Shown piece after piece: positions 381 through 20,479 of a stretch of 64,000 nucleotides of DNA (positions are counted from its first letter, which is position 1; each line of letters opens with the position of its first letter). The stretch spans positions 1,665,425 through 1,729,424 of the forward strand of contig JAHRHZ010000068.1 in the NCBI GenBank assembly GCA_024137785.1, given 5' to 3'. The position numbers and the translations under genes are program-made. The DNA comes from Ginglymostoma cirratum (taxonomy: Eukaryota). Under the pieces are notes generated by a model. That model worked only from the letters and a program-made list of their open reading frames with translations. It made no database searches and was not told the DNA's origin.

Positions 381-514
381 AANNNNNNNNNNNNNNNNNN
401 NNNNNNNNNNNNNNNNNNNNNNNNNNNNNNNNNNNNNNNNNNNNNNNNNNNNNNNNNNNNNNNNNNNNNNNNNNNNNNNNNNNNNNNNNNNNNNNNNNNN
501 NNNNNNNNNNNNNN
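381..514 (+). CDS. FOXP1: Probable FOXP1 canonical forkhead exon 18a hidden in assembly gap
   Basis: A pyrimidine tract plus tag (ttcttctttgtactcactatag, ending 380) is followed by 'aa' and then 132 N. Canonical exon 18a starts with AAT (NAVRHNLSLHKC...), is about 122 nt and lies just upstream of 18b. Inference only; the sequence itself is missing. Confidence 0.5.
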
Positions 515-519
515 TGTTT

Positions 520-1150
520 GATTGCTTGAAACTCCTAGCATAGCTAGCTCCCATGTAGTTTAATCTACAGCTAATGGCTGCTTGCAGGTGATGGAGGGGA
601 GGGTGTCGCTTGGTTATATATTCTTGCTATCTAGGAAATGTGGGGCATGGAAAGCAAGTGCTTTGTCACAGGGTCCTTTCCCCTTGTTTTCCAGTCTGTG
701 TATGCCATGGTGCCCACCCTGTGTCCTTTCCATCTGCTTGCCTAGTGTTCTGCATCATATGCTTCTGCTTGCAGGCTACACATATTAACCCCACAAACCA
801 TTTGCTTATTTCATTTTTTTTTCTCCTTTCCCTTACCCAACCCTTGTGTGTGATTTTTGTTCTCTCCCAAATCCCGTTACCCTTGTTTGTCTTTTCCATC
901 GCATCTGCTTGACTGCTGCTATAATCCCAGGGTGCCATACGCACCAATTTGTCACTACATAAGTGCTTTATCAGAGTAGAGGATGAGTTTGGGTCCTTTT
1001 GGACTGTTGATGATGAAGAATTTAAACGTGGTCGCCACATTCAACGAGGCCGTCCTCGAAAATACTACCCTGATGAAAGCTTTGATGAACAGTTTGCACA
1101 GTAAGAGCTTTTGCTTGCTACTATTTTGCTTCTGCTTTGCATTGCATGGT
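520..1150 (+). promoter_or_regulatory. Splicing-regulatory region around exon 18b (YGCY cluster; UGCAUG)
   Basis: About 15 YGCY motifs (MBNL type) in 520-930, three of them at 906-920 next to the acceptor; four more at 1112-1136; TGCATG (RBFOX type) at 1143-1148. Confidence 0.55.
931..1100 (+). CDS. FOXP1: FOXP1 alternative forkhead exon (exon 18b / FOXP1-ES type)
   Basis: Acceptor cccag|GGT at 929-930 and donor CA|gtaag at 1101; 170 nt. Translates [56 protein letters not shown](H), which closely matches mammalian FOXP1 exon 18b as I recall it ([57 protein letters not shown]). Ends in phase 2 and joins in frame to the exon at 5293. Confidence 0.95.
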
Positions 1151-4100
1151 TACCATCTGTCAGATTGCCCTGAGTTAAATATGAATAACTGTTTCTGTAC
1201 TGTAGTGTATGTTGTTGCATTAAAGTTGATGATCCTGTTATTGACCAAGTTGCAGATTATTCAAAGTGCAATATTTCTGTAATTAAACCAAGCTCTATTT
1301 TAGAAAGTCTTTCCAGTAATTGGTTAAAGAGAAGGTTCAGGTTACATCATGAAATTTTCTTCCAAACTCAGCTTATTATTAGTACTGTTCCCCATTATTT
1401 ACACAGTCTGATCTCAAGGGTCTAAACGCACAAGAAGCAGTCCTTATGAGGAACTCTTAAGAATCCTAACAGCTGAGTTTTGGGATAGAAGGAATTTAGC
1501 CTTTGACTTTTATGGACAATGCAGAATAATCATCTGTGAATGACTTTTGAAAAATTGATCAGATTGGGGCTATGTAAATGAAGCAAGACATTAAATTATC
1601 ATACGATATCATGAGTGCAATTTACTTCACACATGTTTCAACAGGTTCCAAATACTCATCATGAAAAGTGCAGCACAATGCTTTCAATATTTGTATTATT
1701 CCACTTCAAATGTGAAAAGTAGCAACATATTATGCAGTGTCACTTTCACCCAGTGCAAGGGTTCAACAATGATATATTTCAAACATGGAACAAAGAAACA
1801 TAGCCTTTATCTCACCATAATGTATGATGTAAAAGAGAAATCAAACACTAAATTTACTAACTAGTCATGATTGAAATGCAACAATTCATCAAGTCTGTTG
1901 TTCACATGATCACATATCTCTTGCTGAATCTTTTAGATTTAGTTCACTTTGTTCATCAAGCAGATTTCCCACTACCATGCAGGCACATCCATTGATCTAC
2001 ACTTATACAAATATTCAACTGTTTTGCTAGGTGACGCCACAACTTCTTCCATTTGAACTGTAAGTTTTAAAGTAAATTCTGTACAAGTTCATTCATTTCA
2101 TTGCAATACACAGCAGATTATACACAGTGGAATTTGCAATCAAAGTTTTAACATACAGTGGATAGTAATGTATTTCAGCCATTTGCCATGCAGCAACATA
2201 TCATTCAATACATTTGTGCTTATTTTCAGAACAGCTGGTTGGGGGAAAAGAGAAAAATTATGGAAAGATAGAATCCTGGAATAATCCTGTATCAAAATAT
2301 TCAAGTCTTAATCAAATATACTCATTCAAATTGCTGCAGGACATAGTGATGCTTATTGTCAGATTCACAAGATTCTAGTCCAGCTATTGATGGAGTTGTT
2401 TAAGATAGTGGAGGACTTCACTTTGGGGGAAGCCCAACTGTTAACGGTAGAACTACCATTATATGTCTGTAAGATTCCTCATCACACTCCCTGCTGGGTG
2501 AGTAAGTCGCCATGTGGTCACAGTAGCAGAAAACCTAAATAAAGATGGTGGGGGGAGCGTGCGATCTAGGACATGGTATAAATAGATGGTGACTAAAGAA
2601 TAAATTCTTATTTGACAAGGTGATTAGAATAAAATGATAACATGAACCTTTTCTTTAATACTTTAAAATCTTTGTGATGTACAACCAGTCCATTCTAAAC
2701 AGTGAAAAAATACTCTGCCTCAGTACGTATTTCAACTATGAACATAAAAATGTTTTGTGTCCAGGCAAATACAAATGAGGCTGTTGTGGTAAGCTAATTG
2801 TTTCAGACTTGTAGAAAGTTGTCTTATTATCCCATCACTTTTTTATCTGTATTTTTTTAAACTCTATTACTGGCTCAGTAGTAAATGCACTGCATGATAC
2901 ACCAATCAGACAAAGAAGTCGCTTGAATCAGCTGCTTAGTCTCTGTATTGCAACTGATAATTAGGAATTGTTCTGCATACCCAATGCTGCTCAGTTTACA
3001 GTATAGGTAATTGGAGGCATGTTTATGAACATTATTACTCTAGATTAGAGTCATTCTTCCATCCCATGCTTCTGCTACATCTCAGGACCCTCTCCTCCCA
3101 ATGTATTTTGAGACTTCAGGACTCCCTCTACTTTTAAACACCACAATGACTTCAGTCCTGTAAAATATCAGCATCTCCAACAAAATGCTTCCATGCTGTA
3201 CTTATTTACACAAGCTTGAGCTATATCCATTATTACCTAAACCCAGGAATTTCCTGTGTTTGTCCTGACAACTCCCTAAATCCAATGCAATCCACCACTG
3301 TATTGCCATTAGATGCCTGATAGATACATGCAATCTGCAATATCAGATAAAATATTATAACTTCTAAGGAATGAAGACCATTTCTAGGTACTAACACAAG
3401 TCAGTCCTCCAGTGCAGTATTCCACTAGGTGATAATCTAACCAGTTGCTTTTATGTGTGCATCCTAATGAAGGATTTTGTGCAGATATTTGAGCCTGTAG
3501 GCCCAAACCTCGGGCTTCCAGATAACAGCAGTTGGCAGCCCTGCCAGGAGATGAGGATACTGCTCCAATCAGAAGGAGAGCTTGAGTGCACCTCAAAATG
3601 AAGCTGTTCTTAGAAATATCAATGCAACTCCAAAAATAGGGACCCAATGCTGTAAAGACTTTGCAGTGGAGGGATAACCTCTCTGCCAAATTTATTTTGT
3701 TCGTGCCTGTAGGATTTCCTCTGCACAGCCCCTGTTGTTGAATTGCGGAGCCTGCAATTGCAACATCCTCGCAACCTCTTTCTGGGAGGTGCCTTCAAGG
3801 AGCTCAATCAGCAGGCTGGCAACTCGGCAACACCAATGGCTGAGTGCTGGACTGCAGCTGCCTGTTGAGGACACATTGCTGGCTGTCACTTGAAGACAGA
3901 TAAATGATAAAATGGAATTGCTGACAGCTCTCAGAGTCAGTGATGTGGAGCAGCCCCTGATCCCAGATGGCTCCTCTTTGGGGTGCAGAGTGCTCAAAAA
4001 GGAGTCTACTGATCATGAAAGTGGCTCAATTGGGCTCTGGGTAGATGGCAGACCTACCGACTTTCCAACATTAGCAAAATGGAACTGGGTAGGAAGGTGT

Positions 4101-5292: not shown

Positions 5293-5362
5293 CAACCCTT
5301 CTATTATAAAAAATATACAGACCAGCCTTGCATATGGATCACCACTTAATGCTGCTTTACAG
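5293..5362 (+). CDS. FOXP1: FOXP1 coding exon following the forkhead domain
   Basis: acag|C acceptor and CAG|gtaag donor; 70 nt; (H)NPSIIKNIQTSLAYGSPLNAALQ, similar to FOXP1 [23 protein letters not shown]. Confidence 0.93.
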
Positions 5363-19100: not shown

Positions 19101-20479
19101 TAAATCCAGGCCAAACATTTTAACAAAGGCAATAAGTTGACATGGAAGGCCTTTAATAACGCCACAAACATGAAAATGTCAGAGACAGTGTAAGTTGCAA
19201 ATCACATTGAGCTCCACCAGATTTCAGGCGGATCTAAGGTACGACAGCCAAGTTCATATTTTCCAAGTCCGAAATGTAACTGCTAATCTTTCTCTAGCAG
19301 CCACCAACAATTTTTATGCCCACATTTCCAGTCAGGCTACCATGTGTATGGCAAGTTTGGAAACATCCTGGTATCATTCAGAGGTAGAAGATGAGTAATG
19401 TCCCAGAGCATTTTCAAGAACACTTTTTAGCTATGCACCAGGTTAAAGTAATGATAAGTCTAAAATTATTTGCAGAGTTTAAAAATCCTTGAATGCACAT
19501 ATGAGTAATGTAGGAGGATAAATTATAGAGTCATAGAATCATACAGCATGAAACAGACCCTTTAGTCCAACCAGTCCATGCCAACATGTTCCCAAACTAA
19601 ACTAATTCCACATGCCTTCATTTGGCTCATGTCTCTCCCAACCTTTCCCATTCATGTACTCATCCAAATGTCTCTTAAATGTTGTAACTGTACCTGCCTT
19701 CACCATTTCTGGCAGTTCGTTCCACACACTAACCACTCTCTGTAAAAAAAAAAAGGAAAAGCTTGCCCTCATGTCCTTCTTAAATCTTTCTCCTCTCACC
19801 TTAAAAATATACCCTCTAGTTCTGAACTCCCCCCCACCTTAGTGAAAAGACGTTTGCTATTCACCTTATCTATGCCCCTCATGATTTTATAAAACTCAAT
19901 AAGATTACCCCTCAACCTCCTACATTCCAGTGGAAAGAGGTCCTAGCCTATCCAGAGATAAAAGGTACTGCAGATGCTGGAGAATCCGAGATAACAAGGT
20001 GTGGGGCTGGATGAACACAGCAGGCTAAGCAGCATCATAGGAGCAGGAAAGCTTGACGTTTCGGGCCTAGACCNNNNNNNNNNNNNNNNNNNNNNNNNNN
20101 NNNNNNNNNNNNNNNNNNNNNNNNNNNNNNNNNNNNNNNNNNNNNNNNNNNNNNNNNNNNNNNNNNNNNNNNNNNNNNNNNNNNNNNNNNNNNNNNNNNN
20201 NNNNNNNNNNNNNNNNNNNNNNNNNNNNNNNNNNNNNNNNNNNNNNNNNNNNNNNNNNNNNNNNNNNNNNNNNNNNNNNNNNNNNNNNNNNNNNNNNNNN
20301 NNNNNNNNNNNNNNNNNNNNNNNNNNNNNNNNNNNNNNNNNNNNNNNNNNNNNNNNNNNNNNNNNNNNNNNNNNNNNNNNNNNNNNNNNNNNNNNNNNNN
20401 NNNNNNNNNNNNNNNNNNNNNNNNNNNNNNNNNNNNNNNNNNNNNNNNNNNNNNNNNNNNNNNNNNNNNNNNNAAGCTT

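Follow-up and report, generated by a model that had tools for sequence, protein, structure and literature searches.

The alternative forkhead exon 18b of FOXP1 in a shark: orthology, splicing context and possible regulation

Introduction

Alternative forms of the FoxP forkhead domain are old, and Santos et al. (2011, PMC3002244) have placed the A/B exon pair behind them at the base of Bilateria. The FOXP1 event is likewise listed as "Bilateria" in the accessible part of PMC8373072, where an orthologue in a shark, ray or lamprey was required before any deeper search and 84.3% of 236 such events were common to sharks. The same source and its supplement, as far as accessible, give human exon A as 122 nt, exon 18b as 170 nt (chr3:70972011-70972180) and the intron between them as 374 nt. 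The base-contacting residues have been modelled as Asn550 and His554 (FOXP2 numbering), for which mouse B has Gly and Thr (Santos et al. 2011, PMC3002244), and FOXP1-ES, the product of human 18b and mouse 16b, binds a CGATACAA-like motif instead of GTAAACAA (Gabut et al. 2011, via the accessible part of the review PMC11701043).

The sites where exon B is used are less uniform across reports. Mouse B was detected in six adult tissues, brain included (Santos et al. 2011, PMC3002244), FOXP1-ES is described as specific to ES cells (PMC11701043 on Gabut et al. 2011, partial text), and mouse 16b as unregulated in neuronal cells and developing cortex (PMC8989529, partial text); the mouse data thus disagree, pointing to broad adult use, ES cell specificity and a lack of neuronal regulation. 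In the fly, isoform B is expressed in the embryonic CNS (PMC3002244) and has been linked to operant self-learning by an RNAi knock-down that was not detectable at the mRNA level (PMC4070984, partial text). MBNL1 is the dominant repressor of 18b in human cells. A further point of comparison are exons with distant branch points, which are marked by long AG exclusion zones (165 human cases at ≥150 nt; Gooding et al. 2006, PMC1431707, in the accessible text, the main part of which does not mention FOXP1).

The literature searched, with most subscription papers outside that scope, held no shark-specific study of exon B; shark FoxP is treated at the gene level only in the accessible part of PMC11998571, and further literature cited comprises PMC8189919, PMC13044900, PMC6219247 and PMC6238376 (each in partial text). 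Here, we analyse exon B and its surroundings in a 64,000-nt stretch of Ginglymostoma cirratum DNA (the window).

Results

Identity of exon B and its gene context

The initial annotation had proposed an intact, open 170-nt exon with canonical splice sites, corresponding to FOXP1 exon 18b, and both parts of this proposal hold. The exon is framed by AG at 929-930 and GT at 1101-1102, and the frame from 931 runs through 56 codons without a stop, while the remaining two plus-strand frames contain stops; a start codon is unnecessary for an internal exon. Its product comprises recognition helix 3, the strands and wing, and a basic tail. The coding features of the locus, all on the plus strand, are:

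931..1100, plus strand: FOXP1 alternative forkhead exon B (human 18b, mouse 16b), 170 nt, phase 0 to phase 2
5293..5362, plus strand: following FOXP1 exon, 70 nt, which continues the frame of exon B and, judged by phase, that of exon A
31627..31793, plus strand: penultimate FOXP1 coding exon, 167 nt
37521..37665, plus strand: last FOXP1 coding exon, ending at the stop codon

Joined together, these four exons form a single open frame through the stop, and the resulting peptide differs from catshark model P0009 at four of 183 residues. A search with the exon B peptide returned 157 homologues, of which the best 120 were examined; one of these 120 was identical over the full 56 residues, the FoxP1-B isoform X6 of Scyliorhinus torazame (XP_072328365.1; catshark model P0009, E 2.7e-30). 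Among the other genomes indexed for comparison, no look-alike stretch turned up. Primate models share 93% identity, and the 52 of 56 residues shared with macaque are unevenly spread, with 45/45 in the first 45 residues and 7/11 in the last 11, in line with the near-identity that had been claimed. Among solved FOXP forkhead domains, the peptide matched the C-terminal half of seven distinct sequences at E<=0.001, with Thr at the position of the FOXP3 His. Judged by these similarities, the matches to exon B are not due to chance, and together with the 170-nt length of the human exon and the in-frame join to three FOXP1 exons they confirm 931-1100 as the shark orthologue of FOXP1 exon 18b. Assignment to FOXP2 or FOXP4 was rejected, as identity to FoxP1 models is 95-100% over the three downstream exons and the named best matches are FOXP1; a processed pseudogene was rejected given the introns and canonical sites.

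Exon B is under nearly the same constraint as canonical exon A, because it shares 52/56 residues with macaque and shark exon A shares 39/40 with fox, whereas the downstream exons are lower (17/23, 42/56 and 35/47 identical to macaque). The origin from a cartilaginous fish, suspected from the outset, is borne out and narrowed to a shark by the last two exons (103 residues; ungapped comparison, three models with indels left out): a whale shark model is identical, most other shark models differ at 1-4 residues, two rays and Heptranchias at 6-7, and bony vertebrates at 23-38. No good match to the 5' half of the forkhead domain was present within the 64-kb window. A 26-kb intron (5363-31626) separates the exon at 5293-5362 from the penultimate coding exon. 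Six AATAAA sites lie at 40154-42454, 2.5-4.8 kb beyond the stop codon, which suggests that a long 3' UTR with alternative ends may be encoded there.

Compared with human 18b and mouse 16b (FOXP1-ES; PMC11701043, partial text), the shark exon is alike in gene, 170-nt length, phase, position just downstream of A, and Gly and Thr in the recognition helix. It differs from the primate form by four substitutions, all within the last 11 residues beyond the forkhead core, and from the human locus by a predicted A-B intron of 428 instead of 374 nt; the next intron in the shark is 4.2 kb long. A further close counterpart is isoform X6 of S. torazame, with a fully identical exon B peptide between the same neighbouring exons, although it is a predicted model from another shark species with four differences in the 103 residues of the last two exons.

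Recognition helix and age of the exon pair

The altered recognition helix noted in the initial annotation is present, with Gly for Asn and Thr for His at the base-contacting positions of helix 3. The B motif occurred in 110 of the best 120 of 157 homologues, always beginning with Gly, and the other ten were off-pattern. Outside the vertebrates, an exon search found B-type exons in arthropods, a snail, a nemertean and amphioxus (best 150 of 467 matches), and the helix motif counts in this set, taken from cluster representatives, were 83 for Asn/Thr, 46 for Asn/His, five for Gly/Thr and three for Ser/Thr. The named Asn/Thr carriers were insects, a copepod, a barnacle, the snail and the nemertean. 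The amphioxus B-type isoform (P0317) has a diverged helix with Asn followed by Tyr at the His/Thr position and, by its residues, reads as a third recognition variant. Two further B-type exons (P0268 and P0292) carry Ser at the first contact position and a vertebrate-like GRH in the tail; they are possibly an invertebrate chordate intermediate. No named cyclostome was found among the matches looked up.

In a tree built from 23 exon peptides (36 columns; two rows dropped out at extraction), A separated from B at 100/100 and the window exon fell within B; a gar row labelled A is actually a B form and was placed with B. The peptide is conserved to arthropods at 27 of 36 positions, and in a set of 51 distinct vertebrate B peptides changes were concentrated in the tail, most positions of the forkhead being invariant. 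The shark exon thus groups with bilaterian FoxP isoform B (PMC3002244), with which it has His to Thr and the EDDFGSFW and RGRPRK motifs in common; unlike the named invertebrate B exons (arthropods, snail, nemertean, amphioxus), which keep Asn at the first contact, it has the vertebrate Gly. Since invertebrate B keeps Asn and shark B has Gly, the change from Asn to Gly arose after the amphioxus split and before the split of sharks and bony fish. The proposal that the switch predates the bony/cartilaginous fish divergence is therefore true, but it understates the age of the pair, already published as bilaterian (PMC3002244, and PMC8373072 in its accessible part) and seen here in invertebrate B exons.

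Canonical exon A

The expected location of the canonical exon is largely masked by a run of 132 N at 383-514:

381..502, plus strand: putative canonical exon A (human 18a, 122 nt), placed by geometry, with only the first two bases readable

Ahead of the N run, a pyrimidine tract, an AG at 379-380 and two bases fitting the first Asn codon of exon A are readable. Shark exon A comprises 40 codons plus 2 nt in chondrichthyan models, and human exon A measures 122 nt (PMC8373072, partial text), so the putative exon would run to 502, and the N run would cover its donor as well. Exon A would accordingly lie about 430 nt upstream of exon B, with a predicted intron of 428 nt. From this geometry, we hold with high confidence that exon A lies at 381-502, almost wholly in the N run, at about human spacing, and the readable sequence of the window had no other exon A match.

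Exon A models were present for all 15 chondrichthyan species among the best 120 of 839 matches. In this set, 30 of 31 cluster representatives were type A and one was type B, a count that may hide more B forms among the other members of larger clusters. Catshark is represented by A forms (X3 and X7) and the B form X6. Two other runs of 400 N (20074-20473 and 49081-49480) are flanked by similar short repeat sequence, the first with an identical 25 nt on either side, a pattern expected of assembly gaps within a repeat; the 132-N run has no such flanks.

Splicing signals around exon B

The following features on the plus strand surround exon B:

775..928, plus strand: AG-free zone upstream of exon B, 154 nt, 75% pyrimidine
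781..803, plus strand: intronic element some 150 nt ahead of exon B that includes a branch-point-like motif (785-790)
515..930, plus strand: A-B intron as far as it can be read, with 15 YGCY (MBNL-type) motifs, of which three lie no more than 25 nt from the acceptor
1101..1170, plus strand: 5' end of the downstream intron with five YGCY motifs and one TGCATG at 1143-1148

The AG-free zone ranks second among 4098 AG-to-AG gaps on the plus strand of the window, and the AG-free stretch measures 24-54 nt at the three other FOXP1 acceptors. The longest gap lies within a 145-bp, two-copy, C-rich tandem repeat (45128-45417) in a GC-rich patch at 44001-46000 (GC 0.505, 45 CpG) that is probably a repeat element. 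The motif at 785-790 is a candidate distant branch point, and a conventional branch-like motif is also present about 18 nt from the exon B acceptor. In comparisons with 14 unspliced ORFs, the best window match of the translated intron fell in the A-B intron for ten (E 3e-4 to 0.06, pyrimidine-biased), a likeness to be taken as a lead only given the weak E-values; short peptides matching the upstream element, spotted post hoc, occurred in five of the 14, at 138-147 nt upstream of exon B versus 150 nt here.

An upstream count of 15 YGCY motifs was reached by 6 of 2431 windows of the same length (top 0.3%); since 86 of 1000 dinucleotide shuffles reached it too, the density is suggestive only, and the downstream count is not above dinucleotide shuffles (576/1000). 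The TGCATG hexamer, which we take to be an RBFOX-type motif, lies 43 nt downstream of exon B, where about 0.075 would be expected per 150 nt from the 31 sites on the plus strand of the window. With mutually exclusive exons that have AG exclusion zones (PMC1431707 and, for Tpm1 exon 3, PMC3643581, both in partial text), the shark exon shares a zone of >150 nt whose 5' end carries a branch-like motif, as well as UGC/YGCY clusters; it differs in that the distant branch point is only a candidate, alongside a proximal one. The AG-free zone, the distant-branch-point-like element and the YGCY clusters suggest that MBNL-type repression may be as old as the split between sharks and bony fish.

Discussion

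A probable mutually exclusive exon pair

We consider it very probable that the locus harbours a tandem-duplicated, mutually exclusive exon pair for the second half of the forkhead domain, with A in most transcripts and B in a regulated minority. Both exons are 3n+2 long, so either one alone keeps the frame and skipping both shifts it, and in the frame check A and B together met a stop at codon 16 of B; exclusivity at the protein level thus requires no special device. Double inclusion would introduce this premature stop and likely lead to decay. Eight public gene models (P0002-P0008 and P0115) carry the motifs of both exons in a single protein and are probably prediction artefacts of a mutually exclusive pair.

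Because B swaps two base-contacting residues of helix 3, the protein should read another motif, as does human FOXP1-ES, and with its first 45 residues identical to the primate form the shark protein should bind DNA alike, i.e. its preference would shift from GTAAACAA towards a CGATACAA-like motif. In most cells, B might be kept off by MBNL-type binding around the weak, extended acceptor, to be released where MBNL is low, most likely in oocytes, the early embryo or progenitor cells; elsewhere, inclusion would be low.

Where exon B might be used

The initial annotation left the use of the exon in sharks as the open question. RefSeq-type isoform models are usually built on transcript alignments. 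Catshark isoform X6, a predicted model, already includes exon B between the same neighbouring exons, so the question is answered in part, with this model as indirect support for use of the exon in sharks. The further suggestion of a function unrelated to mammalian ES cells does not follow from the shark exon, which may well have a role in the oocytes or early embryos of sharks.

Another reading, which is quite possible without being the probable one, is that exon B is real and used, but mainly in a neural role or in general low-level tuning, as fly B, and not as an MBNL-gated switch of early embryos or stem cells. The embryonic CNS expression of fly B and its tie to operant self-learning (again with a knock-down undetectable at the mRNA level), the detection of mouse B in brain and five other adult tissues, and the TGCATG site 43 nt downstream would all agree with it. 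However, the dense YGCY motifs beside the acceptor agree with human MBNL repression, and mouse 16b is unregulated in neuronal differentiation.

It is improbable that conservation of the stretch reflects chiefly a non-coding or decay-coupled (poison) function, with little B protein being made in sharks. The rarity of B in annotation (1/31 chondrichthyan models, counted on cluster representatives among the best 120 of 839 matches), the premature stop upon double inclusion and the eight gene models that join A and B sequence might be read in this way, but exon B has an open frame in the right phase, conservation of its peptide extends to arthropods (27/36), and the invariant forkhead and variable tail of the 51 vertebrate B peptides are as expected of a coding exon. 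Still less credible is an absence of exon A in this species that would leave B as the sole 3' forkhead exon, since the lack of an exon A match in the readable window sequence is set against a pyrimidine tract, AG and expected two bases before the N run, space for exactly 122 nt plus a donor, and A models for all 15 chondrichthyan species among the matches listed.

Implications for FOXP1 evolution

A more far-reaching idea, which we regard as speculative and rather unlikely to hold in full, is that the whole FOXP1-ES module was present in the jawed-vertebrate ancestor: the change from Asn to Gly and an MBNL-repressed acceptor with a distant branch point would both have been acquired on the vertebrate stem, sharks would switch specificity in oocytes and the pluripotent early embryo as human ES cells do, and B would be neural in invertebrates.

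In kind, the shark exon B is already known, as the pair has been published as bilaterian and the exon is annotated in catshark. What the shark copy adds is a minimum age, since it takes the vertebrate Gly variant and the unusual acceptor layout back at least as far as the ancestor of jawed vertebrates, and it offers an outgroup for asking whether the link of exon B to pluripotency is ancestral to vertebrates or a mammalian co-option.
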